Of a stretch of DNA of 32,000 nucleotides, positions 1,702-32,000 are shown in pieces. Origin of the DNA: an uncultured Chloroflexia bacterium (GTDB lineage Bacteria; Chloroflexota; Anaerolineae; Anaerolineales; Anaerolineaceae); contig OY969938.1 in assembly GCA_963704755.1 (NCBI GenBank), forward strand, positions 1,710,001-1,742,000. Direction: 5' to 3'. The notes beneath the pieces are model-generated. The model searched no databases, was not told where the DNA came from, and worked only from the letters and a program-made list of their open reading frames with translations. A program made the position numbers and the translations under genes. Numbering within the stretch: position 1 is the first letter of the stretch; each line of letters begins with the position of its first letter.

Positions 1702-1708
1702 GCTGGCT

Positions 1709-2746: not shown

Positions 2747-2790
2747 GGCGCAATTTTACCATTTGGGACGAGTAAATATAAGGTAAGCCA

Positions 2791-15759: not shown

Positions 15760-15777
15760 GATTTTTCTCCTCTTTGT

Positions 15778-16161
15778 TTATCGAACTACGGATTCTGTGC
15801 CAGACGATTTATCGGTGTTCTTTGTAAAGAAACTGGCGCGCTGGTGGTAGTATCCCAGAATGAAGATACCCTGTTCATCCAATGTCAAACGGGCAGGAAA
15901 AGGCTCGGCAGCCAGCAATTCCATTAAATCCTGGATCTTCCGGTCTGTTGCGCGACCATATTCGGCTTTAGACGTCCAGTGTTGAGACAGTCGCATCAAA
16001 GTTGGAAATACGCTCGCCGGAGTGGCGCAAGCTGAGGTGAAGTAACGGTCTTTGATGCCGGCATTTACATCCCCGATTGCCTCACGTTGTACTTTCTCGA
16101 GAACGGCAAACAAGCGGCCCAATACGTAGGCCGGGTGAGTATAGGATTTATTGAGTGACAT
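15778..16161 (-). CDS. cas11: candidate internally translated small subunit Cas11c (C-terminal 127 aa of cas8c)
   Basis: In-frame ATG (Met500 of Cas8c, minus-strand A at 16161) preceded by GGAGG (16170-16174) with an 8-nt spacer. The product MSLNKSYTHPAYVLGRLFAVLEKVQ... has the size reported for type I-C Cas11 made by internal initiation. Confidence 0.5.
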   Translation of the reverse strand: MSLNKSYTHPAYVLGRLFAVLEKVQREAIGDVNAGIKDRYFTSACATPASVFPTLMRLSQHWTSKAEYGRATDRKIQDLMELLAAEPFPARLTLDEQGIFILGYYHQRASFFTKNTDKSSGTESVVR

Positions 16162-17658
16162 TTGTAGTGCCTCCAAGTAAGGTTTTTGAGCCTGGCGACG
16201 AAACTTACGCAAAAGGTAGGCCTTGATAAACGCTGCTCTCACGTAGTTTATTTTTCGACTTCTATTTTCGTCGTCGTTATCGTGGCGAACGCGGTTAATG
16301 ATGGCCGAATATAATCCTTCCGGATAAGGTGCTCCGGTGAGAATGGAACGCATGAGCGCACCCCCCATGAGCCCCCAGGTGGACTTCAGTTCATCATCCC
16401 GCCGGGTCACCTTGGGCGAAACACATTCTGCCAGGATGCGATACGGGGAAATGGTATCATGCTGGTTTTGGAACTCCTTTTGGATTTGTAAATCCTCATA
16501 ATGGATCATGATCCGTTCGACAAACTTGCCAAAGGCATCCGTGAGGAAAAATCTCACTGAAAGCCGGGCGGCGTTGGGGGCCAGGCCTAACACAAAAAAT
16601 CGGGTTTGGGGATCCAGTCCTTCTTGCAGAGAAAGAAAATCCAGTGCCTGGGCATGGGCAACTTTACCGGCTACGACTGCCAGTTTAGCTTCGGCTTCTT
16701 TTTGATCCCCCTGGCCATCGACAGAACGGTCATCCCAAAAAGCCGGATTGATCAGGGTGGCAAAGGTGCTTGCGTACTTTTTATTAATGCTCTCGGCCCA
16801 ATACACTACAGTGGTATCACCAAGTTGTATTTTTCGATTGGGATTTTGCGCCGAAAGCAGATAATTAAGCGCTACACCGTAGCCGGAAGCAATTCGTTGG
16901 CCGGTAGGGGAATTCAGCCCCTGGCCTTTAACCCGGCCATAAGATTCGTAAGCGCGTTCATTGAATCCAACCAGAGAGGCGCCGGTTGGGTTGGCGTCAC
17001 GCACGCCCTGGATGTTGGGATGCAACCGGGCGATGGGTTCCACCTCTCCGGAAACCAGGCACTGCATCTGCACCGTTTCCTCATTCGATCGGGATTCTTC
17101 CCAAATGCGGCGGATTTCTGCATCCAGAATGGTACTCCTGCCATCCACCAAGAAAATCAGGTTCCCGCCTGCAAGAAGAGCATTCATGTTTTGGGCTATT
17201 GCCGGATGCTGACGAATGGTGTCCGAATCGAGCTTTTCCAGGAATTCAACGACAGAACGAGCTTCTACGCTGTTAGCCTTCGAAAGTAGGCCGATATTGT
17301 ATTTTCGAAAGGCCTCGAAGCGTTTGAAAATATAATCGCTGTCCTCTAGACCCTCTTTGGTTTTCTTTTCAGAAATACCTAATATGAAGGTGCTATTATC
17401 GCAAAGAAAATTCGGTTTCGGATCTATCCCCGCTCGTTTCACCTGCTCCGGGACGATCATCCGTCGATAGTTCACCTCGCGATCTTTCTTGCCATCGAAA
17501 AATTTTGTGGTGAAGGGAAAAAGATCGAGCAATTCTCCATCCTGTGACAAGTTCAAAGCAAAACTTACGTTGGCCGCGCTGTATCCGGGAGGGGCAATCT
17601 CCGCTTCGGGATCTTCGAGCAAGATTTCGTAATATCGGTAGAGGGATTGCAGAATCAT
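15778..17658 (-). CDS. cas8c: type I-C large subunit Cas8c (Csd1)
   Basis: 626-aa ORF with the N-terminus MILQSLYRYYEILLED typical of Csd1. It sits between cas5c and cas7c and overlaps the cas5 stop by 4 nt. Confidence 0.95.
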   Translation of the reverse strand: MILQSLYRYYEILLEDPEAEIAPPGYSAANVSFALNLSQDGELLDLFPFTTKFFDGKKDREVNYRRMIVPEQVKRAGIDPKPNFLCDNSTFILGISEKKTKEGLEDSDYIFKRFEAFRKYNIGLLSKANSVEARSVVEFLEKLDSDTIRQHPAIAQNMNALLAGGNLIFLVDGRSTILDAEIRRIWEESRSNEETVQMQCLVSGEVEPIARLHPNIQGVRDANPTGASLVGFNERAYESYGRVKGQGLNSPTGQRIASGYGVALNYLLSAQNPNRKIQLGDTTVVYWAESINKKYASTFATLINPAFWDDRSVDGQGDQKEAEAKLAVVAGKVAHAQALDFLSLQEGLDPQTRFFVLGLAPNAARLSVRFFLTDAFGKFVERIMIHYEDLQIQKEFQNQHDTISPYRILAECVSPKVTRRDDELKSTWGLMGGALMRSILTGAPYPEGLYSAIINRVRHDNDDENRSRKINYVRAAFIKAYLLRKFRRQAQKPYLEALQMSLNKSYTHPAYVLGRLFAVLEKVQREAIGDVNAGIKDRYFTSACATPASVFPTLMRLSQHWTSKAEYGRATDRKIQDLMELLAAEPFPARLTLDEQGIFILGYYHQRASFFTKNTDKSSGTESVVR

Positions 17659-18320
17659 TGGCGCACCTCAACTTTGGTCAAGTCGAGCACTCCATCCACC
17701 ATACCGGCTTTAAAGAATTTAGGTTGAATATCTCTCGCATTGGAAAAATCCAGATCGTAGAGCATCCAACCGAAATCTCGTTCGCCAGTAAGTTGGCTTT
17801 TAGGGATTTGTTGTTTATCCTCAATGATTTCCACTTTTGCAGGGAATTCTCGCGTTCCGAGGCAAGGTGTATGATGGTATTGCCCCTGGCGCAGGCGGCG
17901 TAAGATGATGTTGTAATGCCCTTCTTTGGTATCGCGTTCGCCCCAGTGAGCAGGCACTTCATCAAAATGGGCCTCAATTACATAATCTACATTAGTGAGA
18001 ATCATGGATGCCCGCTGCTGGCGGTTGTCTACAGCCGACAAAAATAGCGGCTTACTTCCTCCTTTCATTACCTGCAAGGCGTTATCCGTTGATAGCTTTT
18101 CGCTCACCTCATTGCGGCGAATGTTGGTGAACTGGATTTCGTTTAGAACATGGATCTTGTCTATATTCCAACGGATAGCCGGCTTCCAATAGACCGCCTC
18201 GATAATGCCTCTCGCAGCCGATGGGGTGATTACGTCGTAACTGACCCGTTCCACCTTCATTTCCGGACGGGTAAACAAGGCATATGGTCCGCTGACCCTG
18301 ATTATGATGCCATATCCCAT
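17655..18320 (-). CDS. cas5: type I-C pre-crRNA endonuclease Cas5c (Cas5d)
   Basis: 221-aa ORF with the signature IRVSGPYALFTRPEMKVERVSYDVITPSAARGIIEAVYWKPAIRW. Confidence 0.95.
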   Translation of the reverse strand: MGYGIIIRVSGPYALFTRPEMKVERVSYDVITPSAARGIIEAVYWKPAIRWNIDKIHVLNEIQFTNIRRNEVSEKLSTDNALQVMKGGSKPLFLSAVDNRQQRASMILTNVDYVIEAHFDEVPAHWGERDTKEGHYNIILRRLRQGQYHHTPCLGTREFPAKVEIIEDKQQIPKSQLTGERDFGWMLYDLDFSNARDIQPKFFKAGMVDGVLDLTKVEVRQ

Positions 18321-18379
18321 AAGTCGAACCTCCTATCTTCGCCAGCTCTCCCGAGCTTTGAAGAAACTCTCGGGGTAGA

Positions 18380-20650
18380 TTAGGAAAACAACCCTTCCCC
18401 AGCACTGCTGGTAGGCAGGATTAACCCTGTATAAGGATCGTAAAACTTATTCGTGTCGCTCAACAAGGCATACTTCTCGGCGATGATCGTGATGCCACCC
18501 TGGTTGCTGAGTGCTTCTATGTCTTGCTGGTAAATCGAGACCGTATAGGGTTGCAATTTTCGCAAGGTGGCCAGTGGAAATAGCGTTGTTTTAAGTTCTT
18601 CAATAAGCCTTTTTGCCTCCTCACCGAATGGAATGATTACAGGTTGGGTTGCGTCTTCGATAACATGAAAATTCCGGGCCACGGTCGCAAATTTGAAATT
18701 GAGTTGGTTCTGCGGACCTGGTTGAAACGCATCAAGAATATTTTGATAATCGAGGTCGTGGATATCTTTGAGCTCATATAGCTGTTCGAAATAATCTTGA
18801 ATCGCGGGAATTGAAATAAGCTCGTCGCCATATCTGCGCAGAATATTGCGCGTTATCGCCACACCCTGGGCAACATACCCCGGAGTCCGTTTGACGAACT
18901 CGGAATCGGGCTCGAAAACATACATTTCCGCCATAGATTGCTTCATGTTCCGGTTGATTCGGCCGGCCGCCTGATTGATGGAATCCAGGCCGGTCAATGC
19001 CCGGTAGCCGACCGGGAAATCTACATCGATGCCTGCCTCCATTACCGTCGTCGATACAACGCGGCAGGTCTCCCCACAATCCAGCCTCCGGTGAATTTCC
19101 TCTAATTTCTCCTTGCGGTGAGCAGGGCACATCAGCGTCGAAAGGTGAAACTTGCCTTCGCCTTCCAATAATTTGAACAACCCACTGGCATGTTTTCGTG
19201 TATTCAGGATACACAAAACTTGCTTATAGTCTTGTAGTCTTTTGGCCAGATCTTTATCGGTAACTTTTTCGCTTAACGGTTTTACATTAACGCGCTTATA
19301 AAAAGCGAACAGGTCCTGTGGTTCAGGCGCAAGCTCGGTGACCGGGGTTCCTTCAGGCAAGAATCTTTCCAAATTGGGTTGGGTAGCGGTACAAAAAACC
19401 GCACTGGCGCCATAATTGGTCACTAATTCCGAAACAGCGCCTATAGCCGGGAGCAAATATTCTTTTGGAAACATTTGCGCTTCATCAAAGATGATTACGC
19501 TTTTAGCCAGGTTATGCAGCTTACGACAATGAGACGATTTATTGGCGAACAACGACTCGAAAAACTGTACATTCGTCGTAACGACGATAGGAATATTCCA
19601 ATTTTCTGCCGCCAACTTGAGCTTGGTATATACGCTCCTGGTCTGGTCTTCGGCTGCTTCGATAGAATCCCGCTTTTTCTGTTCCCAGTCGAAATTAGAA
19701 TGGTGTTCCAGAACGTTCTCTTCACCCAATATCTTTTTAAATACACCTGCATTTTGTTCGATGATCGTAGTGAATGGAATTACATAAATAATGCGTTTTA
19801 AATCGTTTTCAACGGCGTGATTGAGCGCAAAAGCCATTGACGCTAATGTTTTCCCCCCGCCGGTGGGTACGGTGAGTTTGAAGAAACCCGGTTTACCCGC
19901 GGCTTTCCTGATGCAACTTTTAAGAGTGTCGGTGCGCTTGCGGTTGATGGCTGTTTCGGGATGGTCAAATCCTTGCAAGTGAAGGTTGAATTTATCGCAC
20001 AACACCCGGATACTCTCATGCTCTCCACGTGGCTTTTTCCCCCGAATGAAATTCTCCGATTCCTGGAAATCGGCATCCACCAGGGCAGAAAAGAGCATAC
20101 GTGTCAGAAAGGCTATCGAAAAACCGATCCGGGAGATTGGTGGCTTTTCGGGAGAGCGACGAAGTTGTAATGGATGGATATTCAACCAATTTGGAGGTTT
20201 GAATTTAGCCAGATCGATATCTGTTTTGTAAGCACTATAATCGCAAACCTTCGTCTTGAGTCGTGCTTGCAGGGTTCCATCACCGGGTAAATCGGTCGAA
20301 TCGCCATAGTCTAACAAGCCAGTATGGTGACCACTGATGCAATATGCCAGGATCGTCGCCATAGGTTCTTGTGGTTTACCCTTGAAAAAATCGGTGATTT
20401 CTTTTGCTCCCGCGGTGGCATGGTCCACTTTAATGGAAGCCCCATTGAGTCGCGCTTGAAATTCTTCCGAATATTTCCCTAAATCATGGATGTAACCGGC
20501 CAATCTAGCCAGGTCCTCGATGTTTGCGTCACGGCCGAATTTGGCCGCTAATTCGGCTGTATTAGTGAGATGCTGCTTAATGGTTTGCCACTCTGATTGA
20601 TTTGTGCCTTTGGAGTGCGCATAAAAGTTCATCTTTTCCCCCTCAAACAT
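18380..20650 (-). CDS. cas3: Cas3 HD-nuclease / SF2 helicase
   Basis: 756-aa ORF. HD motifs (YIHDLGKYSEEFQ, DHATAGA), Walker A LTVPTGGGKT, and motif II IIFDEAQ. The start may be the second Met (MNFYAHSKG, at 20632). Confidence 0.95.
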   Translation of the reverse strand: MFEGEKMNFYAHSKGTNQSEWQTIKQHLTNTAELAAKFGRDANIEDLARLAGYIHDLGKYSEEFQARLNGASIKVDHATAGAKEITDFFKGKPQEPMATILAYCISGHHTGLLDYGDSTDLPGDGTLQARLKTKVCDYSAYKTDIDLAKFKPPNWLNIHPLQLRRSPEKPPISRIGFSIAFLTRMLFSALVDADFQESENFIRGKKPRGEHESIRVLCDKFNLHLQGFDHPETAINRKRTDTLKSCIRKAAGKPGFFKLTVPTGGGKTLASMAFALNHAVENDLKRIIYVIPFTTIIEQNAGVFKKILGEENVLEHHSNFDWEQKKRDSIEAAEDQTRSVYTKLKLAAENWNIPIVVTTNVQFFESLFANKSSHCRKLHNLAKSVIIFDEAQMFPKEYLLPAIGAVSELVTNYGASAVFCTATQPNLERFLPEGTPVTELAPEPQDLFAFYKRVNVKPLSEKVTDKDLAKRLQDYKQVLCILNTRKHASGLFKLLEGEGKFHLSTLMCPAHRKEKLEEIHRRLDCGETCRVVSTTVMEAGIDVDFPVGYRALTGLDSINQAAGRINRNMKQSMAEMYVFEPDSEFVKRTPGYVAQGVAITRNILRRYGDELISIPAIQDYFEQLYELKDIHDLDYQNILDAFQPGPQNQLNFKFATVARNFHVIEDATQPVIIPFGEEAKRLIEELKTTLFPLATLRKLQPYTVSIYQQDIEALSNQGGITIIAEKYALLSDTNKFYDPYTGLILPTSSAGEGLFS

Positions 20651-21158
20651 CGTTTTCCAAACCCAAGTTAATTTTGTAAATCGTTTTCACACCACACAAC
20701 ATTGCCAAGGAATGAGCTTCCATCCTCAACCTTTCCCGCAAATCCTCTGGCGTGAGCGCCTTACCATCGCTCCCCCATCCGCGGATCTATGGCAGCCTCT
20801 CCAGCGGTTCGGCGATCCAGGCGCGCCAGAACAGGCTGCCGTCATCCTGGAGGATCACCCGTTCCGAGTGGTGCCAGCGGGTTTCCTCGAACCGGTGGGC
20901 TGCACATGGGCTAAATTTCAAGATCACCTCCACCGGCTCAACTTCAGTATACCAGATGCCCCAGGCGTGCTTGAGCAGTTCGGTCGGGTCGAAGTCTTCC
21001 GAGATGGTGTAGGGCTCGCGCAGCAGCTCGATCCGCACGCTGCGCTCCCACTTGAGCGTACGCCATGTGTCCGGAGGTTCACGCCGGCCAATGGCGTGCA
21101 CCGGCTGGCCCACGGCATAGGGCTCGATGTAGTACGGCGCGAAGAAGAACTCGTTCAC
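20643..21158 (-). pseudogene. WYL-domain transcriptional regulator remnant (WYL + C-terminal extension only; in-frame amber)
   Basis: The translation ...FFFAPYYIEPYAVGQPVHAIGRREPPDTWRTLKWERSVRIELL...DPTELLKHAWGIWY...VILKFSPCAAHRFEETRWHHSERV..DDGSL resembles WYL regulators. A TAG at 20787-20789 interrupts ..ERLP*IRGWGSD.., where such proteins have PWI.GWG. The frame continues to a TGA at 20643-20645 that overlaps the cas3 ATG. An in-frame stop lies just upstream of 21158 and no HTH domain is encoded. Confidence 0.65.
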
Positions 21159-21547
21159 CTGGCCGTTTTCTTTGCGGCGTCACAAATGATTATTGGCAAA
21201 CCATCCTGAAATTTCAAATGTGCTCAGGAATTATCCCCAAAGTGAGCAATGCTAAAGATATGTCCGCGTGGATGGTTACCCTTTCATTTAGAATTAAAGC
21301 AGGATTTACGAGAAGTAGAGGGAGAAGTGATTTGGCTGGGTCTTGATTTGAAATTTCCGGATGAATTTTGGAAAGAGAATTTCGATCAAAATATCCTGAT
21401 CATTACCACCGGAGCACAGTTGACAGGAAGTGAGATTGAGATATAATTTCATCCGCGAGTTGCTACCGATAGGGAAACTGATTCGATAGGAACAAATGAT
21501 AAAGGCAGCCACTGATTGGATTTTTAGCCGGTCAGTGGACCTAAAAT

Positions 21548-21620
<73 letters not shown>

Positions 21621-21756: not shown

Positions 21757-23190
21757 CAGCCGGCCCCCTACTCTACAGGGGCCAACCAGACCGCTGTGCC
21801 ATACAAATATCCAAAATCAAAACCCTGGCGCTTTTCAACGTCAACCAGGTATGCAAACTTCCTGGCTTGAGCCAATAAATTGTTGGCCAGGAATTGTTTG
21901 CCGTCCGGTGACCAAACCACCCCACCGGGATTCCCATTGAATTCGTCATGGGTATACTCAACGATCGCGGGGTCCCATACTTCTTCCCGTTTAAAATCAT
22001 AGACCAATAACCGGACATCCGCTTCCTCTTGGACGTAAAAGGAAAGATACTGTCCATCCGGAGACCAGGCAATCCCGCTGGCCCACAGGAACTTTTCTGA
22101 AATCGCCGGATCAAGTAAAGACTTTTCATTCCCTTCCCGATCGACCACGGTCAATTCCAGGGTTTTATGTTCACCGGCATCTGGGACGAAAATGGCAAAG
22201 CGGCTCCCGTCCGGCGACCATGCGGGTTCAGAACTCCACGGCCGGGCTGCCAACGAGATCAGGTTCCGCCGCCAAATTTCTGTATTCGTTTTTAGGTCCC
22301 AAAGTGAAATCGCCCAGTCCGGCTTTTCGAGATTATTTTCATAAAATATCACCATCGAAAGTGAAGGGTCGTATTTCGGGGCGACCGAAGCGCTATACCA
22401 GTTTGGAACTGGCCAAAATCTCCCATCGACCAGGTTAGGAAAAGTCGGCGTGATCAGTTGCGACTGCTGAGTAACCAGGTTATATAAAATGAGCCTGCCC
22501 AAAGGGTATGGGTTTCCAACCGGGTATAGAAAAACCTGGGTATTCGAAGGCCAGTAGGCTATGCCACTTGCTTGCAGCTTATCTAGATCCACCGACTGAT
22601 AGGAATCTCCATCGGTAAGGATCATGGAGGTTTTTACCGCTGTTTTGCTGAGCTCTTCCCGGATAAATGCAGCATGACGTTGATCCGGCGCGATCATCTG
22701 ATTGCTATTATTATCTGCGAAAATGCAACAATCTTGTATCGAAAGGAACACTTCTGGAGATGCCATTTCGTGTTGATATTTATCTACCACTGCATAGGAA
22801 CGTTTCCCCTTCTGAAGCGGATTGAACAAAATCGTGCCATCTGACAGGCTTTCGGTATCCATAGCCGGGGGATTAACCTGAGGGTATTCGGATGCCGTCA
22901 TCATTGAAGTAGGTGTTAAACTGGCAAACGGGGAAGGAGACGGCGTCGATCGCATGGGTATCGTTTCGGTTGCTGCCGGCCCTGGCGGTGTAACCGTCAG
23001 AGTCGAAATGCCAGTTGCCGTCATTTCTGGAGATGGATTGTTACAGCCGGCCAGGCAAAGAACAACCACGAGAACGCCAAATGTTTTTATTGTTTTTGAT
23101 GAGAAGCGCATTTTTTTACCATTGGCTTGCAAAATCACGATAGCTCAGGCAATCGTTCGAAATGATTCGATCGGTTATTTCTTTAATCAA
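21757..23190. repeat. segmental direct duplication, copy 1 (partner at 30567-32000)
   Basis: The offset is exactly 8810 bp at both ends, with no net indel. By eye it is near-identical except for two short divergent patches. The extent is limited by the window end. Confidence 0.9.
21768..23111 (-). CDS. exported PD40/TolB-like beta-propeller lipoprotein (paralog A1)
   Basis: Signal peptide plus lipobox MRFSSKTIKTFGVLVVVLCLAGC. PD40-type blades AWSPDGSRFAIF, AWSPDGQYLSF and VVWSPDGKQFLA. I place the start at the Met that matches the paralog; the ORF track opens at 23138. Confidence 0.8.
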   Translation of the reverse strand: MRFSSKTIKTFGVLVVVLCLAGCNNPSPEMTATGISTLTVTPPGPAATETIPMRSTPSPSPFASLTPTSMMTASEYPQVNPPAMDTESLSDGTILFNPLQKGKRSYAVVDKYQHEMASPEVFLSIQDCCIFADNNSNQMIAPDQRHAAFIREELSKTAVKTSMILTDGDSYQSVDLDKLQASGIAYWPSNTQVFLYPVGNPYPLGRLILYNLVTQQSQLITPTFPNLVDGRFWPVPNWYSASVAPKYDPSLSMVIFYENNLEKPDWAISLWDLKTNTEIWRRNLISLAARPWSSEPAWSPDGSRFAIFVPDAGEHKTLELTVVDREGNEKSLLDPAISEKFLWASGIAWSPDGQYLSFYVQEEADVRLLVYDFKREEVWDPAIVEYTHDEFNGNPGGVVWSPDGKQFLANNLLAQARKFAYLVDVEKRQGFDFGYLYGTAVWLAPVE

Positions 23191-24030
23191 ATAGCCCGGA
23201 TCAGCTTGTGTTTTCCATACAATTTCTCCAAAGGTTTCTTCTTGATCATGAATATCGACAGGATGCTCAGGATCGAATAATTCGAGAACAACATCTTTCT
23301 CTGTAGAATCGCCCAGGCAAATATTGGCCTGGGTGGTCGTTAAACTATCAATAGCAAAAACAAACCCATACTGTTGATAATCCAAAATGAAGCCCATCCA
23401 ATCCGCATAAGGGCCGTGAAGATAAATCGAATTTGGGTATCCTAGCTGTTTGACTTGTTTGTCAACATCGAGGAACGCAGGAAATTCATCGAGCCGAATG
23501 GTTATTAACTCGACAATCCCGTTTTTCCAATTTACATCAATTGAAATTGACTTTCCGGCATTATTCGAAGGACTATTTTGAAAATTTTCCGTGTCCTCGA
23601 TGAGAAATATTGTCGAGCCCCCTTCCGCGAGGTATTGGTCTTCTTGGAAGTTTAATCCTAAATTCGCAGCGAAACTTTTAATATCATAAAATGTAGATGT
23701 TCCAGGAGTTAGCCCCAGCCAACAAGGCAAAATGCAGGCATGTGTTCCGGCTAAAACATCCGTTTTGTTTTGAATTTCCTCATAGGTTAAGGTAGCAATT
23801 GCTTCCGGCGTATAGCTTGTAGGCGTGGGCTGGATGTTTTTAGGTTGAAGGGATGGGAGAGACAAGTCCCATGTAGGCGATGTCGTCTCTAACTGTGTGG
23901 GAATTGATTTAGAAGGTAGCGGAGTGTTTTGAATAGATTCCAGCGTTGCAAAACCAACCTGTCTATCCTGGTGATTACACCCCGGCAATATGAACAACAA
24001 AACTAAAAAGAGGTAACGGATATTCGCCAA
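23116..24030 (-). CDS. hypothetical lipoprotein (304 aa)
   Basis: N-terminus MANIRYLFLVLLFILPGC is lipobox-like, with a TTG start that is uncertain. No recognisable domain. It lies 4 nt upstream of the PD40 lipoprotein gene, and a second copy begins at the window edge. Confidence 0.6.
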   Translation of the reverse strand: MANIRYLFLVLLFILPGCNHQDRQVGFATLESIQNTPLPSKSIPTQLETTSPTWDLSLPSLQPKNIQPTPTSYTPEAIATLTYEEIQNKTDVLAGTHACILPCWLGLTPGTSTFYDIKSFAANLGLNFQEDQYLAEGGSTIFLIEDTENFQNSPSNNAGKSISIDVNWKNGIVELITIRLDEFPAFLDVDKQVKQLGYPNSIYLHGPYADWMGFILDYQQYGFVFAIDSLTTTQANICLGDSTEKDVVLELFDPEHPVDIHDQEETFGEIVWKTQADPGYLIKEITDRIISNDCLSYRDFASQW

Positions 24031-24098
24031 TTTCTACATCTTTTCATATAAAGCTATTGATTATGAAGGCCGGTGCTTAGGCAACAACAACCGTAATA

Positions 24099-24401
24099 TC
24101 ATTTTTTACATATTGAAGACCTTTGTTTTAATTTTTTTCTACTTGCTGGATTCTCTGAAGGGCCATAATATCTGGCCCGCAAATAGACCAGCCCGGTCAG
24201 CGGGTCGTAGCTCGCGTCGGTGAAGGCGTAACCTGTCGATTCAACTCCTTCACTCTCCAGCACCTCTCCATAAGGTGAGTAGCTTTGGGTTAGGGTAATA
24301 GCTCTGCTTGCGTCGGCCAACTGACGCACACTGCCCAGAGCCCCCGGTATGAAGTTCTGAATTGGATTCTTGAAATTCCAAGTATAAATACCTTGAGTAC
24401 T
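24099..24401 (-). pseudogene. RHS/YD core fragment (cassette d), without a toxin tip
   Basis: The frame reads ..FIPGALGSVRQLADASRAITLTQSYSPYGEVLES..GYAFTDASYDPLTGLVYLRARYYGPSENPASRKKLKQRSSICKK*. The RHS core ends inside the RARYY(D/S)P..GRF motif. The NNP...DPxG cleavage motif and any toxin domain are missing, and there is no ATG. Confidence 0.7.
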
Positions 24402-24483
24402 TTAGACGTAAAAAGCTTATGGAATCCAGAATATGGGCATAAGCCTTTTTCATTTTTGTAGAGACCACTTCTATACATATGGG

Positions 24484-24798
24484 CTAACTATTTTTGTCTT
24501 CATCCTCAGACTTGTTACGTCGCCACCACCATTTTCTCCATCTGTCGGAAAACCAAAGCTCTCGACTATAAATAACCGGAAAAAGAATGGTTATATAACA
24601 GGCGATGGCTAGTAATGTGGCCTTTGGAGCTGCGAGCCTTATCCAGGCTAACACGCAAATGCAAAGCAAGGCTATATAAAAAGGGGAGTACAAAGAAATA
24701 TAGCCTTTCTTTCGTAACCAATATCCAACACCTAGAGATGGAAGCGAACATAATACCCCTATTGCTGTTGTCGAAAGTATGAATACAGGGATGTTCAT
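24484..24798 (-). CDS. small 3-TM membrane protein with basic Trp/Arg-rich tail (immunity candidate)
   Basis: 104-aa ORF with three hydrophobic helices and the tail RWRKWWWRRNKSEDEDKNS. A good GGGAGAG Shine-Dalgarno lies 5 nt before the ATG. Confidence 0.6.
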   Translation of the reverse strand: MNIPVFILSTTAIGVLCSLPSLGVGYWLRKKGYISLYSPFYIALLCICVLAWIRLAAPKATLLAIACYITILFPVIYSRELWFSDRWRKWWWRRNKSEDEDKNS

Positions 24799-24813
24799 AA
24801 AAACTCTCCCAAA

Positions 24814-25032
24814 TTAAGGGGTTATGAGAATGGCATTTTCTAAATCATGATAAACACACCCTATTGAAAAGCCACCGCTAATAGCGGAACCAAATCCAGG
24901 TATGAGACCAGATAAGGCACTACCTAAACTTAACCAAGCTCCATTAGGATCACCATTGATAATTAGAATAGGTGTATTGCCCAAATTATAAGCGAAGTTA
25001 ACTTCGTTTATTGTTTTAAGGGTTGCTTTCAT
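24814..25032 (-). CDS. 72-aa Gly/Ser-rich small protein
   Basis: ORF 21 nt downstream of the toxin c stop, with no clear SD. It contains AWLSLGSALSGLIPGFGSAISGG, which resembles the last 24 aa of toxin c. Confidence 0.45.
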   Translation of the reverse strand: MKATLKTINEVNFAYNLGNTPILIINGDPNGAWLSLGSALSGLIPGFGSAISGGFSIGCVYHDLENAILITP

Positions 25033-25053
25033 ATTTGAAGTGTACTTTACACC

Positions 25054-25836
25054 TTAAATCGCGGAACTCGCACCGGGGATAATGCTAGCAAGAGCACTTA
25101 TGGTATCAAGAGAAAAACTCAACCAGTTTACCTTTGAAGGGTTAAAAATTAGATGGTAGTGTTTATCCCATGCCATTGTGTCGAATTTTATAGAACCATC
25201 GCTACGCCTAATTTGATACCAATAAGTATGGGCTAATTTGTAATCCAAATCCACCAGATCGCCATCGTTATATTCATCAGCGACAATGATTCCTTGCCCA
25301 TACTTTCCATTTGGCCTAAGTGTTCCAAATTGACCGCCAGCAAATTTACCAACATAACTAGGACTAAATTTATATCTATCTATCTCTCCGTCAATACCAG
25401 CATAGAACAGATCGCCAGTCTCTGCTCGACGCATAACCTCCAGCCAACCCCATTTTCCGTTAAATCTACCTCCAAATTCAAATTGCTTTATAACATCAGA
25501 CCAAGAATTTTTACCCATGAAAAGCATAATATCTTCTTCAGAAAATTCACCGTATGGGTCAACGAAATTGATCGGATTATTCCTTGCATAATTGTACCGA
25601 TTCCAATCTCCTGGAGAAAAAGGCCCTGGCATAAAAGGGTCAGGCTGCGTGAACTCGTGAAGATAAGGAGAGTAATATCTGGCCCGCAAGTAGACTAACC
25701 CCGTTTGCGGATCATACATCTCGCCGGTGTAGGCGTAATCACTGACGGCATCGCCACTACTATATAATATCTCCCCATAGGGCGTGTAGCTTTGCGTCAG
25801 GGTGACTGCTCCGCTCGCGTCGGTCAACTGATGCAC
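25054..25836 (-). CDS. orphan RHS C-terminal cassette c: RHS core end plus ~160-aa unrecognised toxin tip
   Basis: (V)HQLTDASGAVTLTQSYTPYGEILYS..YAYTGEMYDPQTGLVYLRARYYSP...NRYNYARNNPINFVDPYGEF, followed by a domain I cannot assign. It opens with the GTG of the GSVRQL motif and has stop codons immediately upstream, so it is 5'-truncated. Confidence 0.8.
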   Translation of the reverse strand: MHQLTDASGAVTLTQSYTPYGEILYSSGDAVSDYAYTGEMYDPQTGLVYLRARYYSPYLHEFTQPDPFMPGPFSPGDWNRYNYARNNPINFVDPYGEFSEEDIMLFMGKNSWSDVIKQFEFGGRFNGKWGWLEVMRRAETGDLFYAGIDGEIDRYKFSPSYVGKFAGGQFGTLRPNGKYGQGIIVADEYNDGDLVDLDYKLAHTYWYQIRRSDGSIKFDTMAWDKHYHLIFNPSKVNWLSFSLDTISALASIIPGASSAI

Positions 25837-26078
25837 ACTTCATTGGCTATGGGTGTGTCAAATGGTCGGCCTATATGGCAGGAAGCAACCAACTTCCTAT
25901 AAACGTTTTCTCTTCAGTGATATTTTTCTTACGGTACTTACCGTGCCGAGAAATATTTACTTATAGACAACAAATTTTTCAATACGTATAGCATTAATGT
26001 TTTAGATTGTACATTGTTGTCGATCACACAGAAATTCGCTATAAATCGGCTGATTTTAATTGAGCGAGCGGACAACGA

Positions 26079-27176
26079 TTACTCTGTTAGCTTCGGTGAA
26101 AATCGATACAATCCATTTTCCGTAGCAATCAGGATAGCATCCTGGCCCTCCTCTTTCATGTCAAGAACTTCTCTGAACGGCAATTTGGTTAAACTAACCC
26201 ACTGCCCATTTTCCTCGTATGCCAGGCAAGCGTTTTTCTGATTCCTCAAACAGGCATTGATCCATAACCTCCCGCTTTGGTCCACCAGCAAGCGTAGCCT
26301 ACCCGGATCGAGGGCTAAATCCGATGAATAAAAGGGGATTCTCTCCAGGTTACCATCTCTATCGATTATTACTAACCAATCCTGATGTTCATGTACCGCA
26401 AAAACGTTTCCATATTCGTCTGAGCCGATACGGATTGCCGTGTAGGAGCCAGAAGGCCATAACATTTCTCCAGAATAGATTTCCCAACCGGTACCGTTAT
26501 AGTGACCAATTCCCACGGGCCAGCCAAACGAAGCCCAAAGTGTACCATCAGCGGTAAATAGAATTTGTTCCGCCTCTGCCATCACTTTTTTTGGATTTGG
26601 CAGCAAACTCCAGTCAGCGCCAGCGAAAATTTGAATGCCTTTATAGCAATTACAATTTGGCAACGCCACATACACCTCTCCTAGAGGAGAAATCGCCAAT
26701 CTGGGCACGGCAGTTTCACTGGTATTATTCAAATTGAAGAAATCCCATTTTCTATTGTGGTAATGCGCTAAACCTTCACGCCCAACAGCCCAAAGCGTAC
26801 CATCTGGTGAAACAGCCATATCACTTGGTGTTGAGAGACCGTAATCCTCTCCGGAAAAATGCGTCCAATTTCCCTGATAAAAGTAGCCAATTCCCTTTTG
26901 AGCAAAATACGCCCAAATTCCCTGCTCCGCACCAAGCTCAACCTGAGAAACCATATCTTCGTCATAAATCTGGTCCCATTCGGTGGGAATAAACTCTCTT
27001 TCCACGATGGGGACACCCCCTTGAGTAGAGGTGATTTGCGGCGTTACAAGGGTTGGTGTGGCATGGCCTATTGTTCCATTGGTTCCCGGTGAGGAAAAGA
27101 TGCTCTTTTCATTTTGAGTTGAGCATGAAGCTAAAGATAAAGCCATGAAGAAGAATAAAGTCATCCTTTTTTTCAT
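26079..27176 (-). CDS. exported beta-propeller lipoprotein (two-component-regulator-propeller-like blades), immunity candidate for toxin b
   Basis: MKKRMTLFFFMALSLASC lipobox. Repeated blades GIWAYFAQKGIGYFYQGNWTHF, DGTLWAVGREGLAHYHNRKWDFF, DGTLWASFGWPVGIGHYNGTGWEIY, SGRLWINA. The ATG at 27176 has a GAGGGG SD and lies 8 nt after the toxin b stop. Confidence 0.75.
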   Translation of the reverse strand: MKKRMTLFFFMALSLASCSTQNEKSIFSSPGTNGTIGHATPTLVTPQITSTQGGVPIVEREFIPTEWDQIYDEDMVSQVELGAEQGIWAYFAQKGIGYFYQGNWTHFSGEDYGLSTPSDMAVSPDGTLWAVGREGLAHYHNRKWDFFNLNNTSETAVPRLAISPLGEVYVALPNCNCYKGIQIFAGADWSLLPNPKKVMAEAEQILFTADGTLWASFGWPVGIGHYNGTGWEIYSGEMLWPSGSYTAIRIGSDEYGNVFAVHEHQDWLVIIDRDGNLERIPFYSSDLALDPGRLRLLVDQSGRLWINACLRNQKNACLAYEENGQWVSLTKLPFREVLDMKEEGQDAILIATENGLYRFSPKLTE

Positions 27177-27183
27177 TTTCCCC

Positions 27184-28234
27184 TCAATTGTCATTAACAT
27201 GGACGATACTAATTAAATTATTCCGACTTGTAGTGTTATCCAACGAACGGAAGGCTGTATATGCAATTCCGCCACTCCTTTCTACCACGAGCGGACGTTC
27301 GTTAGTAAATGAGTTGCACAATTGAAGACTTTCTATCCAGTTCAAATATTCAATTCCACCTTCCATACCAGAAGGGCCGCTTCCAGGATTAAGCTTAGGA
27401 CCATATTCTGTTGGCAATCCCCAACCAACAACTATAGCCACATGATTCCATTTATTTTCGCTTTCCCCATAAAACACTAGATCTCCCTTTTGGATTTTTG
27501 ATCGATTGGTCAGAAGAAGGTTTTCCCAATTTTGATCTACCGATGATGAATTGTACCGATGTTGATCAGTGTCCTGAGGCGGGTTGGAGTATTTTATTAC
27601 CACCTCACCAATTACTTTGGTATCAAAACCATAAAAAGCATCTGTGTTATACCAACTACTCTTTCCTGCGTAACCTAAATACTGCCAAGCCCCTTCTTTC
27701 AAAATATTAATGTCCCAATATGGGGGGATCTAAATCAATTCCACCTACTTTTTTATCGGGGTTCGGATCTACGCGTGGATCTCGCACACCGTTTTCGTAT
27801 AAGATACTTGAGGCAAACAATGTGCATTGGCTAGAATAATCAGATCCTGGATCAAGTGTAGTAAAGTCATAATTAGGGTCTAACCCTTGTTGATAATCCC
27901 ATTGCATTGCGTATGAAACGGCCCCTAAGCGATTATATACATAATGGCCACTCGGATCCGTAAAATTGATAGGGTTATCATAGGTGTAAGCATAGAAATT
28001 CCAATCCATTGGATTTCTTGGATTTGGTTTAATAGTATCGGGTTGCATAAACTGATTGAGAGGAGGGCTATAATACCTCGCCCGCAGATACACCAGCCCC
28101 GTTTGCGGATCATACATCTCGCCGGTGTAGGCGTAATCGCTCACGGCAGCGCCATCACTATATAATATCTCTCCATAAGGTGAGTAGCTTTGGGTCAGGG
28201 TAACAGCTCCGCTCGCGTCGGTCAACTGACGCAC
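27184..28234 (-). pseudogene. orphan RHS C-terminal cassette b: papain-fold amidase-like toxin tip, split by a +1 frameshift in a C6 (G6 on + strand) run
   Basis: The RHS end is (V)RQLTDASGAVTLTQSYSPYGE...LVYLRARYYSP...YAYTYDNPINFTDPSGH. The tip carries SSQCTLFASS (Cys), GDLVFY and KWNHVAIVVGWG (His). The two ORFs (27707-28234 and 27184-27702) join if the run at 27722-27727 is one base shorter. Confidence 0.8.
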
Positions 28235-28326
28235 ACTTCATTGGCTATGGGTGTGTCAAATGGTCGGCCTATAGGAGAGGAAGCGGCCAACCTCCAATAA
28301 ACATCTCTTCTTTCATGCATCTTCTC

Positions 28327-29280
28327 CTAAGGCGCCCAACTCGCCCATAAAAAACTATCCATCGAGAAATAGAAGCTCTTTTTCCAGAATGTATCGTACA
28401 TATACAATTTGGGCCGTGTATAGTCATCCACTGTACAGGAATGCACTATGAAGCGCCCAGTAAATGATTGCGCAAGCGGATAACAATTATTCATGAGGAC
28501 TTGGACGTTTTCACCGTGAATATCGCCGGAAAAATAACGATAATCGGAAGAAAAATTCCGGCTAAACGTAAATCGGCCCTCAGATGCCGGCCACCATTTT
28601 GGGTTTTCTCCATCGATAATGTAGGTCAATTTGGTGAAATCAGTATCGATCGAGTAAATTCTGCTTTCTCGTTTTCCATCTATTTGGGTATTTATTCCTA
28701 TGAGCGGAAACGGGCCGGGATTCCAATCCGGTTCTATGCTCGCCGGTTTAACATCGGGGACCGAGATCCCCTCTGGTAAAATTTCCTTGGTTTGCATATC
28801 GAACAGGTGAAACTGTACCCCATTTCCAGAAACGTATTGGTCAAAGAGGATCCGGGTTCCATCCGGCGACCAGGCTATTTTATGATCTATGACTTCAAAA
28901 TAGTCACTATCGTCCCCGCTTTCGAAGGAAAACAATTTCTCCATTTCTCCGCTTTGAACGTCCAATAGACCGATATTCACCATGACGCTGCCCATTCTTG
29001 CGTATGTCCCAAAGGGACCTTCCTCGAAGACAAATGCGATTTTCTTCCCATCCGGCGACCAGGCCAAATCATAGATGCGTATGTCCGGAGAATAATAAAC
29101 GTTCCTAAACTTTCCCCAACGATAAACAACAATTTCATCATAATGCCTGGTGCTCATCGCCAGTGAATTGTTTGCCTGCAAGAACATCTGCAGGTATTCA
29201 CTGCCCAACCAGGCCGGATAGGCCAGCAAAAGCACTGCCAGAATAATTAAGATCCGTTTCTTGCGAGTTTGTTTCACCAC
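28327..29280 (-). CDS. membrane-anchored PD40/TolB-like beta-propeller protein, immunity candidate for toxin a
   Basis: N-terminal anchor KKRILIILAVLLLAYPAWLG, then LAWSPDGKKIAFVF and IAWSPDGTRILF blades. The ORF track opens at 29340 (TTG, overlapping the toxin stop). A GTG at 29280 preceded by AGGAGG (29288-29293, 7-nt spacer) is the likelier start. Confidence 0.75.
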   Translation of the reverse strand: MVKQTRKKRILIILAVLLLAYPAWLGSEYLQMFLQANNSLAMSTRHYDEIVVYRWGKFRNVYYSPDIRIYDLAWSPDGKKIAFVFEEGPFGTYARMGSVMVNIGLLDVQSGEMEKLFSFESGDDSDYFEVIDHKIAWSPDGTRILFDQYVSGNGVQFHLFDMQTKEILPEGISVPDVKPASIEPDWNPGPFPLIGINTQIDGKRESRIYSIDTDFTKLTYIIDGENPKWWPASEGRFTFSRNFSSDYRYFSGDIHGENVQVLMNNCYPLAQSFTGRFIVHSCTVDDYTRPKLYMYDTFWKKSFYFSMDSFLWASWAP

Positions 29281-29336
29281 CCACAACCCTCCTGTTCTTC
29301 GTAGCTGAAGACATCTGGCATATGCACAATTACCAT

Positions 29337-30557
29337 TCAATTCACTTCCGACCAGGTATCGTTGATGGAATGGATATTCGATGTTCCATATTGGGGTAAT
29401 CCGGTTATGTTGTTATCCTCGAACCCGCCTGAATGTTCAGCCACCAATGGAGCCGTTTTTCCATACAAGGATCTAGCGCCAACGGTATCCGTTAATGACT
29501 GGTTGGGGTCAATGATAAATGCGGTATGATTGAACAAGCCATTCGGCTCTTCGACAAAATGGAGAGCGTGGTCCTGCCTGTAGAACACAACGTCCCCAGC
29601 CTGGATAGAGTATCCCGAGAAGCTAAAGTTCCCATAGCTAGATAATTGAATTGGACTTGGAATCACATTCCCATGCGCCTTTGGTGCACTTAGTTCTTTT
29701 CTTCTATCGCTATCAGCAAAATTACTCAAAGCAGGTATTGTCCCATCGATGGTATAAGCTACGCCTCCCATACTGATGAGATGATTATACAAGTTGTCGG
29801 TGATCGCCCAATCTTCACCGCAGAATGAGGCCCAAGTTAAGTAATACACAACAGATTTTGCCGCTTGGGGATCATATCTTAACAATTCTTCGAAGTGAAT
29901 GGGAATACACCTGTTTGCTCCGCCAATTAGTATTCCGCCTGCAGCTGAGAAAAACCAATTTTCATTCTCTGGCATACCGCCGGCCTTAATGGATTGAGAA
30001 ACGAAGTTGGTGCAATCCGAACCACCAAAGCTGCCATAATCGGGATTGATTTGAGAGGCGTAATCTTTGGCATATTTTGCAGCCGCTTGCCGATCATATG
30101 TGACATATTTCGTCTTATAACCCGTTGGATCGACAAAGATGATCGGGTTAGCACTCGCGTATAACCATTGATTGAAAGTGATTGGGGTAAAATCGTCACC
30201 CGCCCACGCATCCTTCCCGACAAACCTGCCCTCCACCGGGCTATAATACCTCGCCCGCAGATACACCAACCCTGTTTGCAGATCATACATCTCGCCGGTG
30301 AAGGCATAATCGCTCACGGCATCGCCATCACTATACAATATCTCACCATAAGGGGTATAGCTTTGCGTCAGGGTAACTGCCCCGGCGTCATCTACTATCT
30401 TTCGTACAGATCCCAAGGCGTCTGGAAGGAAATAACCCGCCTGGGTGTCGGATATCTGGGCAATGCGGCTAACTCCATAAAGGTAGGTATTCGTACTGTT
30501 TTGCATCGAACCAGGATTGGCCCTACACACAAATTCAATAAGAAAGGGTGGTGCCAT
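29337..30557 (-). CDS. orphan RHS C-terminal cassette a: RHS core end plus papain-fold 'putative amidase' (Amidase_6 / NlpC-P60 / CHAP-like) toxin tip
   Basis: ..NTYLYGVSRIAQ..YFLPDALGSVRKIVDDAGAVTLTQSYTPYGE..LVYLRARYYSPVEGRFVGKD..LYASANPIIFVDPTGY. The tip carries GGSDCTNFVSQSIKAGG (Cys), GDVVFY and FNHTAFIID (His). It holds only ~150 aa of RHS core, so it is not a full-length RHS protein. Confidence 0.85.
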   Translation of the reverse strand: MAPPFLIEFVCRANPGSMQNSTNTYLYGVSRIAQISDTQAGYFLPDALGSVRKIVDDAGAVTLTQSYTPYGEILYSDGDAVSDYAFTGEMYDLQTGLVYLRARYYSPVEGRFVGKDAWAGDDFTPITFNQWLYASANPIIFVDPTGYKTKYVTYDRQAAAKYAKDYASQINPDYGSFGGSDCTNFVSQSIKAGGMPENENWFFSAAGGILIGGANRCIPIHFEELLRYDPQAAKSVVYYLTWASFCGEDWAITDNLYNHLISMGGVAYTIDGTIPALSNFADSDRRKELSAPKAHGNVIPSPIQLSSYGNFSFSGYSIQAGDVVFYRQDHALHFVEEPNGLFNHTAFIIDPNQSLTDTVGARSLYGKTAPLVAEHSGGFEDNNITGLPQYGTSNIHSINDTWSEVN

Positions 30558-30577
30558 AGCTCGTTAAAGGCAGCCCC

Positions 30578-31921
30578 CTACTCTACAGGGGCCAACCAAA
30601 CCGCAGTGCCATACAAATATCCAAAATCAAAAACCTGGCGCTTTTCAACGTCAACCAGGTATGCAAACTTCCTGGCCTGAGCCAATAAATTGTTGGCCAG
30701 GAATTGTTTCCCGTCCGGTGACCAAACCACTCCACCGGGATTCCCATTAAATTCGTCATGGGTATACTCAACGATCGCGGGGTCCCATACTTCTTCCCGT
30801 TTAAAATCATAGACCAATAACCGGACATCCGCTTCCTCTTGGACGTAAAAGGAAAGATACTGTCCATCCGGAGACCAGGCAATCCCGCTGGCCCACAGGA
30901 ACTTTTCTGAAATCGCCGGATCAAGTAAAGACTTTTCATTCCCTTCCCGATCGACCACGGTCAATTCCAGGGTTTTATGTTCACCGGCATCTGGGACGAA
31001 AATGGCAAAGCGGCTCCCGTCCGGTGACCATGCGGGTTCAGAACTCCACGGCCGGGCTGTCAACGAAATCAGGTTTCGCCGCCAAATTTCTGCATTCGTT
31101 TTTAGGTCCCAAAGTGAGATTGCACAAGTCGGTTGGACTGGGTCGGCTTCATAATATATCACCATCGAAAGTGAAGGGTCGTATTTCGGGGCGACTGAAG
31201 CGCTATACCAGTTTGGAACAGGCCAAAGTCTCCCATCGATCAGGTTAGGAAAAGTCGGCGTGATCAGTTGCGACTGCTGAGTAACCAGGTTATATAAAAT
31301 GAGCCTGCCCAAAGGGTATGGGTTTCCAACCGGGTATAGAAAAACCTGGGTATTCGAAGGCCAGTAGGCTATACCACTTGCTTGCAGCTTATCTAGATCC
31401 ACCGACTGATAGGAATCTCCATCGGTAAGGATCATGGAGGTTTTTACCGCTGTTTTGCTGAGCTCTTCCCGGATAAATGCAGCATGACGTTGATCCGGCG
31501 CCATCATCTGATTGCTATTATTATCTGCGAAAATGCAACAATCTTGTATCGAAAGGAACACTTCTGGAGATGCCATATCGCGTTGATATTTATCTACCAC
31601 TGCATGGAAACCAACCCCCTTCTGAACCGGATTGAACAAAATCGTGCCATCTGACAGGCTTTCTTTGTCCATAGCCGGGGGATTAACCTGAGGGTATTCG
31701 GATGCCGTCATCATTGAAGTAGGTGTTAAACTGGCAAACGGGGAAGGAGACGGCGTCGATCGCATGGGTATCGTTTCGGCCGTTGCCGGCCCTGGCGGTG
31801 TAACCGTCAGAGTCGAAATGCCAGTTGCCGTCATTTCTGGAGATGGATTGTTACAGCCGGCCAGGCAAAGAACAATCACGAGAACGCCAAATATTTTCAT
31901 TGTTTTTGATGAGAAGTTCAT
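30578..31921 (-). CDS. exported PD40/TolB-like beta-propeller lipoprotein (paralog A2)
   Basis: 447-aa ORF with MNFSSKTMKIFGVLVIVLCLAGC lipobox. It is collinear with 21768-23111. The C-terminal ~170 aa are identical but for one residue. Confidence 0.85.
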   Translation of the reverse strand: MNFSSKTMKIFGVLVIVLCLAGCNNPSPEMTATGISTLTVTPPGPATAETIPMRSTPSPSPFASLTPTSMMTASEYPQVNPPAMDKESLSDGTILFNPVQKGVGFHAVVDKYQRDMASPEVFLSIQDCCIFADNNSNQMMAPDQRHAAFIREELSKTAVKTSMILTDGDSYQSVDLDKLQASGIAYWPSNTQVFLYPVGNPYPLGRLILYNLVTQQSQLITPTFPNLIDGRLWPVPNWYSASVAPKYDPSLSMVIYYEADPVQPTCAISLWDLKTNAEIWRRNLISLTARPWSSEPAWSPDGSRFAIFVPDAGEHKTLELTVVDREGNEKSLLDPAISEKFLWASGIAWSPDGQYLSFYVQEEADVRLLVYDFKREEVWDPAIVEYTHDEFNGNPGGVVWSPDGKQFLANNLLAQARKFAYLVDVEKRQVFDFGYLYGTAVWLAPVE

Positions 31922-31925
31922 TTTT

Positions 31926-32000
31926 CTACCATTGGCTTGCGAAATCCCGATAGCTCAGGCAATCGTTCGAAATGATTCGATCGGTTATTTCTTTAATCGA
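31926..32000 (-). CDS. 3' end of a second copy of the 304-aa lipoprotein gene (partial, runs off the window)
   Basis: Nucleotide homology to 23116-23190, with a TAG stop at 31926-31928 and the same 4-nt spacing to the downstream PD40 gene. Confidence 0.6.
   Translation of the reverse strand, partial: SIKEITDRIISNDCLSYRDFASQW

Follow-up and report, generated by a model that had tools for sequence, protein, structure and literature searches.

Immunity proteins of polymorphic toxins are usually small and have dedicated folds of their own. Tsi1 of the Pseudomonas aeruginosa type VI secretion system (T6SS) is a soluble protein of ~170 amino acids (aa), and Tai3 and TsiH, the antagonists of the T6SS effectors Tae3 and TseH, are small periplasmic proteins that are not known to be propellers. 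Here we describe, in a 32,000-nucleotide (nt) stretch of contig OY969938.1 ("the window", to whose positions all coordinates refer unless another locus is named), two orphan RHS toxin cassettes (tips a and b), each followed by a gene for a large exported beta-propeller protein (P0001 behind tip a and P0121 behind tip b). With a probability of roughly 75%, we read these propellers as cognate extracytoplasmic immunity proteins, based on conserved synteny, specificity for toxin type, anchoring signals, toxin decay and the domain identities of the partners.

A close counterpart among described systems is the Tse1 (Tae1)-Tsi1 pair of P. aeruginosa, in which a papain-fold amidase of the NlpC/P60 type is countered outside the cytoplasm by an all-beta, propeller-like protein encoded by the adjacent gene. 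Tsi1, crystallized in a form without its periplasmic leader, is a partial propeller of three sheets, and its closest structural relatives are the propellers of DPP-IV (PMC3391265), a class that P0001 also matched. The present proteins differ from Tsi1 in being complete, membrane-tethered propellers of ~315-410 aa that pair with RHS toxins in Chloroflexota. Small, partial propeller-like inhibitors of peptidoglycan hydrolases, which insert a loop into the active site, are also represented by X-Tfi(XAC2610) and PliI (PMC10933484). Like the present proteins, X-Tfi(XAC2610), an immunity lipoprotein of the Xanthomonas type IV secretion system, and PliI-Ah, a periplasmic lysozyme inhibitor, are exported or lipid-anchored, but their targets are glycoside hydrolases, their propeller topology is reduced, their delivery routes are different and their hosts are Proteobacteria.

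On the toxin side, Amidase_6 has been grouped with the papain-like enzymes of the NlpC/P60, CHAP and amidase type and linked to the T6SS effectors Tae3 (PMC10318531) and TseH (by HHpred; PMC4453574). The Tae3-Tai3 and TseH-TsiH pairs have toxins of the same fold family as tips a and b, neutralized by the product of an adjacent gene, but these toxins are standalone T6SS cargo in diderm bacteria. RHS toxins of the Tox-NLPC/P60 type end in a peptidase of the NlpC/P60 clan that was predicted to degrade the walls of target cells (Zhang et al. 2012, PMC3482391). That survey listed no immunity family for Tox-NLPC/P60 and found no beta-propellers among immunity proteins (PMC3482391); the present pairs would fill the place of the missing partner. 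A preliminary description of the window had suggested that such propellers would be an unusual, possibly undescribed class of immunity protein: the absence of beta-propellers from the surveyed immunity proteins favors this, while the partial propeller of Tsi1 sets some precedent. In open-access text we found no description of complete propellers as immunity proteins.

Exported propellers are conserved behind amidase-type RHS tips

In the homologue search, the toxin domain of tip a (family A) had only six relatives, and the toxin of tip b (family B) formed 19 clusters. The family A toxin was followed by a transmembrane (TM)-anchored PD40 propeller in all five loci (window, L002, L005, L006 and L007). 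These partners are 314-336 aa long and consist of a basic N-terminus, a TM helix and PD40 repeats (the L005 copy is cut by the contig end), and P0001 aligned over its full length with the partners from L002, L005, L006 and L007 at 25-34% identity. Moreover, the propeller gene overlapped the toxin stop by 4-10 nt in L002, L006 and L007 and started 4 nt past the toxin gene in L005.

The family B toxin was followed by a Reg_prop lipoprotein in 15 of the 15 loci with readable downstream sequence (window, L008, L009 (two), L010 (three), L012, L013, L015, L017, L018, L019, L021 and L023); L022, outside this count, has the start of a family B propeller behind its toxin. Both genes of a pair lie on the same strand, with a gap that reaches ~0.3 kb in some loci, and one of the L010 pairs sits at the end of a full-length RHS gene encoding 3420 aa. 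The four tip b homologues that were looked up were each followed by a P0121-family lipoprotein of 359-408 aa, with further pairs in their arrays. Furthermore, a metagenome scan with the family B toxin yielded seven more loci: in five, the gene directly downstream encodes a family B propeller (E=1.7e-81 to 1.7e-13), a sixth shows the lipobox, linker and first motif up to the contig end, and the last ends before any downstream sequence.

The pairing was also approached from the propeller side, via a scan of GTDB representatives (the source genome is not among them) with an alignment of five family B propellers. All copies of the family, carried by an uncultured Chloroflexia metagenome-assembled genome and by the cultured Leptolinea sp. 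HRD-7 (AP024710.1, locus L015), lay directly behind RHS-Amidase_6 tips; the scan also returned one unrelated giant multi-propeller protein. For family B, propellers that occur just as often without toxins were thus not seen. The propeller family (16 representatives at E<=1e-30 among 1.84 billion proteins) is comparable in size to the toxin family.

A sweep of all fetched loci with hidden Markov models (HMMs) of the toxin and of both propellers (PropA and PropB) gave 5 pairs of family A and 15 of family B; cross-pairs were absent, and wherever sequence was readable each toxin had its propeller. Near-duplicates among the loci (L010m and L013, at 92% identity; L015 and the similar L017) reduce these pairs to ~18 independent ones. 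The pair loci held no other conserved small open reading frame (ORF) that could serve as an immunity gene. Within the immunity slot, genes for these large exported propellers were the sole ones conserved. The preliminary description had proposed that exported propellers repeatedly take this slot and had called for a survey of other genomes; in that survey the proposal held for every homologue with readable downstream sequence.

Such adjacency could in principle arise through hitch-hiking, without any functional link, as an artefact of a small number of related mobile cassettes within one lineage, with the window cassettes as dead relics. Every named source belongs to Chloroflexota, near-duplicate loci occur as noted above, integrases lie near the L002, L010 and L013 cassettes, and both window toxins are disrupted (see below). 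We nevertheless consider this explanation very improbable: i) pairs whose toxins share as little as 27-33% identity, and propellers 21-26%, still have intact ORFs and keep their coupling; ii) the same arrangement is found in two unrelated propeller families; iii) one pair ends the full-length 3420-aa RHS gene.

Toxin domains of tips a and b

Tip a scored 63.4 bits for Pfam Amidase_6 (PF12671; cutoff 23.2, E=3.4e-17), and its RHS-associated core was recognized by TIGR03696 (E=7e-18). Tip b consists of two ORFs in different frames (27707-28234 and 27184-27702), the N-terminal half with a weak match to Amidase_6 and the C-terminal half with weak matches to NLPC_P60 and CHAP. Deletion of one C from the run of six at 27722-27727 repaired the +1 frameshift and gave a continuous tip b of 349 aa, which matched Amidase_6 with E=7.7e-10 and 39.5 bits (same cutoff). 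The repaired junction, DPPYWDINILK, occurs verbatim in the intact full-length RHS homologue of L010, and the other tip b homologues in the toxin-family search (P0131-P0146) are uninterrupted. Because the frameshift lies in a homopolymer run, it may be an assembly error. Weaker NLPC_P60 and CHAP matches cover the His strand, the toxin domains are preceded by the autoproteolytic cleavage motifs FVDPTGY (tip a) and FTDPSGH (tip b), and the RHS cassette matched RHS/Tc plugs in the PDB profile search (E=2e-9).

Tip a is interrupted by a premature in-frame TGA at 29337-29339. Reading on yields MVIVHMPDVFSYEEQEGCGW and then a stop, which corresponds to the conserved C-terminal strand of tip a homologues (the xxVVVHxPD...C(P) tail in P0124-P0129), so that ~20 residues are lost. 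The ancestral stop (29274-29276) overlaps the start codon region of P0001. The premature stop recurs in a Logan contig that was assembled independently and matches window positions 28244-30267 with 100% identity. A recoded TGA was considered and rejected, as tip c, a further cassette of the array, stops at TAA and the defect of tip b is a frameshift. Both toxins had initially been taken as intact, which does not hold for either.

We aligned 21 family A and family B toxins (residue numbering of P0123). C165 is invariant and H327 nearly so (at least 90%), the G, D and Y of the GD(L/V)VFY motif are invariant, a P...E(H/R)SG motif is nearly invariant, and the toxins end in an IVHI strand. The layout Cys...GD(V/L)VFY...NH(T/V)A, on which the papain-fold assignment had originally been based, is present in both tips. 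In an AlphaFold2 model of the toxin, C165 opens a helix (165-175) and H327 opens a strand (327-337), at low confidence (mean predicted local distance difference test (pLDDT) score 52.7); its lone significant Foldseek match was the Bacillus subtilis Amidase_6 protein YjcM (9a4p_A, E=2.8e-4). Together with the above-cutoff Amidase_6 matches of tip a and repaired tip b, these motifs support the prediction that both tips are papain-fold domains of the Amidase_6 / NlpC-P60 clan carried on RHS cassettes.

Two unrelated families of membrane-tethered propellers

P0001 is exactly the protein called at this position in the deposited genome. Its gene has a GTG start with AGGAGGG upstream, and in the protein a basic N-terminal stretch (MVKQTRKKR) precedes a single TM helix and PD40 repeats (PD40 E=2.6e-8), in line with its first reading as a TM-anchored PD40 propeller. 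The AlphaFold2 model (mean pLDDT 71) shows a helix at residues 3-23 and then ~20 strands, with the last third uncertain; its best structural matches were TolB (Foldseek E=1.5e-9) and the propellers of S9/DPP-IV peptidases. Besides itself, only generic PD40 relatives were found for P0001 in a search of 5.8 billion proteins.

P0121 starts with ATG 7 nt past the tip b stop, behind the ribosome-binding site GAGGGG. It carries the lipobox LASC, a Ser/Thr/Pro-rich linker of ~45 aa and a propeller body, and was alignable over its full length to partners in 14 other loci; the family B partners share a lipid anchor and a Ser/Thr/Pro linker of 40-90 residues. The profile of the family matched Pizza6/PknD-type propellers, Reg_prop sensor propellers (BT4663-type, 4a2l) and Vgb lyase (E=5e-13 to 1e-9). 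The description of P0121 as a lipobox propeller right behind the tip b stop was thus confirmed. A TM helix or a lipobox is present in every partner of both families, which predicts an extracytoplasmic location, and at the sequence-profile level the two propeller families are unrelated (hhalign probability 2%).

Fold and repeat type are common to the two partner families and to TolB of the Tol-Pal system and the Reg_prop sensor propellers, respectively. The partners as TolB orthologues were rejected: they scored far below the TolB equivalog cutoffs (19.4 bits against 405 and 17 against 343), lack the TolB N-terminal domain and neighbor RHS tips rather than tol-pal genes. In contrast to Reg_prop sensors, they have no kinase or regulator modules.

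The kinship with sensors raises the alternative that the propellers protect indirectly, by binding or shielding the peptidoglycan substrate or by sensing wall damage. Reg_prop propellers are glycan-binding sensor domains of hybrid two-component systems (4a2l, 3v9f and 3ott were among the matches), and the long Ser/Thr/Pro linkers would put the propeller within the wall layer. This alternative appears quite improbable, as one-to-one co-variation with toxin subfamily and the co-divergence in family B (see below) are expected of a protein-protein pair rather than of a shared substrate, and two unrelated propeller folds would both have to bind the same wall structure.

Toxin-type specificity, co-divergence and toxin decay

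RHS tips that bear other toxins in the same arrays served as controls, and their neighbors are not propellers: i) the main RHS protein of L009, with an HExxH toxin, is followed by a 222-aa protein; ii) behind a 299-aa RHS tip lie the genes for a 138-aa and a HEAT-repeat protein; iii) a 390-aa RHS tip is followed by a 242-aa protein; iv) tip c of the window, an internal control with an RHS core (TIGR03696 E=2e-21) and no match to a toxin family, is followed by a 72-aa Gly-rich ORF and a 104-aa TM ORF. As a separate observation on tip c, the 72-aa ORF is in frame with it beyond its TAA stop and contains GSALSGLIPGFGSAISGGFSIG, a stretch resembling a glycine zipper; a nonsense codon may have split a membrane-active toxin here, or the ORF may be a small gene of its own.

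In family B, pairwise identities of toxins and propellers correlated (Mantel r=0.83, p=4e-4). Moreover, five of the ~20 amidase tips are damaged or undeliverable, namely window tips a (nonsense codon) and b (frameshift), L009b (split), and L002 and L006 (no RHS core), and all propeller ORFs are intact over the available sequence. Toxin decay beside intact propellers is the pattern expected of a downstream gene that is retained for protection. The split tip in L009 (9784-11246 of that locus) is a family B-type RHS tip with an NLPC_P60 match, spread over two frames, and the propeller gene behind it is intact.

These data bear on a further alternative, that the propellers are accessory factors, such as a chaperone for secretion or maturation, a platform on which the RHS protein docks at the surface, or a cofactor of the receptor type; the preliminary description had also named secretion or receptor cofactors as a possibility. 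In favor of this, propellers often serve as docking scaffolds for proteins, TolB, to whose fold P0001 comes closest, is itself a binding partner of colicins while they are imported, as seen among the PDB matches, and ~315-410 aa is an unusual size for an immunity protein. We regard this alternative as unlikely. The partners track the C-terminal toxin type and not the N-terminal trafficking region of the RHS protein, they are kept beside shell-less orphan tips (L002 and L006) and beside truncated or disrupted toxins, propellers are lacking next to RHS proteins of the same arrays that bear other toxins, and the loci offer no alternative conserved small ORF as the real immunity gene. Overall, toxin-type specificity and persistence beside orphan tips fit cognate immunity better than they fit a cofactor role, substrate shielding or hitch-hiking.

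A model for propeller-based immunity

In the model that we propose, the toxin domain of a full-length RHS protein lies inside the YD shell and is released past the DPxG motif. The released domain, predicted for tips a and b to be a papain-fold peptidoglycan amidase or endopeptidase of the Amidase_6 family, would attack the wall of a neighboring cell from outside the cytoplasm. Each tip is translationally coupled to a gene that would encode its cognate immunity protein, a complete beta-propeller tethered to the cytoplasmic membrane on its outer face through a TM helix (family A) or a lipid anchor and linker (family B). The tethered propeller would bind the incoming amidase and block its Cys-His cleft; by analogy, such blocking, as the partial propeller Tsi1 does to Tse1, is the most likely mode of action. 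The host envelope is presumably of the monoderm type, since all named relatives are Chloroflexota and given general knowledge of this phylum.

Several points weigh against cognate immunity: i) the toxin model is poor, and the fold assignment therefore rests on HMMs and motifs; ii) the B. subtilis members of Amidase_6 are listed as uncharacterized (PMC10653849); iii) Tsi1, X-Tfi and PliI were absent from the PDB profile matches of the partners (for family A, the 60 best among 120 matches with E<=10; for family B, all 38 with E<=1), and also from the 50 Foldseek matches listed for P0001; iv) the Mantel correlation in family B could partly reflect co-inheritance of the cassette, and family A, with only five loci, shows no correlation between toxin and propeller identity; v) the tip b frameshift is possibly an assembly error, so the argument from toxin decay is weaker for this tip.

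PD40 lipoproteins in a duplicated unit

Two more PD40 lipoproteins of the window (30578-31921 and 21768-23111) had been placed in positions equivalent to those of P0001 and P0121. This part of the preliminary description was not upheld, as neither copy lies directly behind a toxin and each is preceded by a gene for a 304-aa lipoprotein. The two copies belong to a direct repeat (21763-23188 / 30573-31998) of 96% nucleotide identity and 8.8-kb spacing, which reaches the window edge; besides the PD40 lipoprotein gene it includes the 3' end of the gene for the 304-aa lipoprotein, and the duplicated unit is therefore the 304-aa lipoprotein plus the PD40 lipoprotein. The toxin upstream of the first copy (30578-31921) lies past the window edge. 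As the repeat brackets the whole array of orphan cassettes, it suggests that the array was built or expanded by recombination between the two copies. The 304-aa lipoprotein had no family match in the domain library search.

In L010 (9456-12231 of that locus), a 507-aa RHS tip whose C-terminal domain of ~290 aa has no family match is followed by a 413-aa PD40 lipoprotein, which is homologous to the 447-aa lipoproteins of the window (24% identity, E=1e-24). This may be a third toxin/propeller pairing, and a related role of the window PD40 lipoproteins is possible because their L010 homologue occupies an immunity slot. A relationship of the 304-aa lipoprotein to the L010 507-aa tip, as a toxin domain that had become detached, was considered and rejected, as the two show no similarity. 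Separately, upstream of its amidase/propeller pair, L012 has a 345-aa PD40-like lipoprotein and a 269-aa WD40-like protein (1244-3633 of that locus) with no adjoining toxin; these may be orphan propeller immunity genes.

Array layout and genomic setting

The region is a classic array of orphan rhs toxin/immunity cassettes (Table 1). All relevant cassette genes are on the minus strand, and the coordinates in the preliminary description proved correct. The window tips begin inside the last ~130 residues of the core and are therefore orphan cassettes; they have no full-length YD-repeat shell, and a main rhs gene, should there be one, would lie past position 32000. A 174-nt repeat (direct-repeat family D1), which encodes the end of the RHS core, is common to all four tips. 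Tip d departs from the other tips immediately past RARYY, and the 304-aa lipoprotein gene starts <70 nt later. The G+C content is 41-46% across the array (23000-30000) versus 50-60% in the remaining window, consistent with horizontally acquired cassettes, and the closest relatives at the cassette loci are Chloroflexota (Anaerolineae/Chloroflexia).

Table 1. Features of the orphan-cassette array and the adjoining CRISPR-Cas locus, in 5'-to-3' order of the minus strand.
Feature	Position	Strand	Remarks
304-aa-lipoprotein paralogue gene, 3' end	31925-31998	minus	first in 5'-to-3' order; in direct repeat that reaches window edge
PD40 lipoprotein copy 1, 447 aa	30578-31921	minus	preceded by 3' end of 304-aa-lipoprotein paralogue
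Tip a, orphan RHS C-terminal cassette, family A toxin	29337-30557	minus	RHS core, DPTGY motif and Amidase_6
Severed tail of tip a	29274-29336	minus	in-frame translation beyond premature TGA: MVIVHMPDVFSYEEQEGCGW and stop
P0001, family A partner, 317 aa	28327-29280	minus	TM helix and TolB/PD40-type beta-propeller
Tip b, orphan RHS cassette, family B Amidase_6 toxin	27184-28234	minus	frameshifted
P0121, family B partner, 365 aa	26079-27176	minus	lipobox LASC, linker and Reg_prop/NHL-type beta-propeller
Tip c, orphan RHS cassette, non-amidase toxin	25054-25836	minus	TIGR03696 E=2e-21
72-aa Gly-rich ORF	24814-25032	minus	same frame as tip c
104-aa multi-TM protein	24484-24798	minus	neighborhood of tip c
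Tip d, RHS core-end remnant	24099-24329	minus	no toxin domain; repeat shared with other tips
304-aa lipoprotein	23116-24030	minus	lipobox LPGC; first gene of duplicated two-gene unit
PD40 lipoprotein copy 2	21768-23111	minus	lipobox LAGC; directly after 304-aa lipoprotein gene; PD40 E=2.7e-8
Cas3	18380-20650	minus	type I-C cas operon (14540-20650)
Cas5d	17655-18320	minus	type I-C cas operon
Csd1/Cas8c	15778-17658	minus	type I-C cas operon
Cas7	14893-15759	minus	type I-C cas operon
Cas4-like ORF, 118 aa	14540-14896	minus	type I-C cas operon; short
CRISPR array	10177-14190		61 copies of 33-nt repeat GTTTCAATCCACGCTCCCCGTGTGGGGAGCGAC

The array adjoins a type I-C CRISPR-Cas locus. Between cas3 and the nearest PD40 lipoprotein gene (20700-21560) there are only overlapping ORFs on both strands, none with a family match. 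No cas1 or cas2 was visible between the cas operon and the CRISPR array. In the CRISPR array several neighboring spacers are duplicated (11083/11153, 12501/12566 and 12634/12702), and the overlapping plus-strand "ORFs" across it are artefacts of the array.

Implications

Beyond the two window pairs, a tentative generalization, which we hold to be possible though short of even odds, is that complete propellers are a recurrent and independently evolved class of extracytoplasmic immunity protein against papain-fold amidase toxins. Under this generalization, Chloroflexota would have recruited two unrelated families on separate occasions, with the 413-447-aa PD40 lipoproteins as a possible third, and the small partial propellers Tsi1 and X-Tfi of Proteobacteria would be reduced versions of this one means of inhibition. 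The toxin-propeller pairing is phylogenetically narrow and is of note to specialists in interbacterial toxins. If the immunity reading is true, a major interaction fold would join the immunity repertoire, and the propellers would be new natural protein inhibitors of papain-fold peptidoglycan hydrolases. Moreover, the two families would provide two searchable markers for wall-targeting toxins and orphan immunity genes in the poorly studied Chloroflexota, and membrane-tethered inhibitors on long linkers would be the means by which bacteria of the monoderm type shield an exposed wall against secreted amidases.

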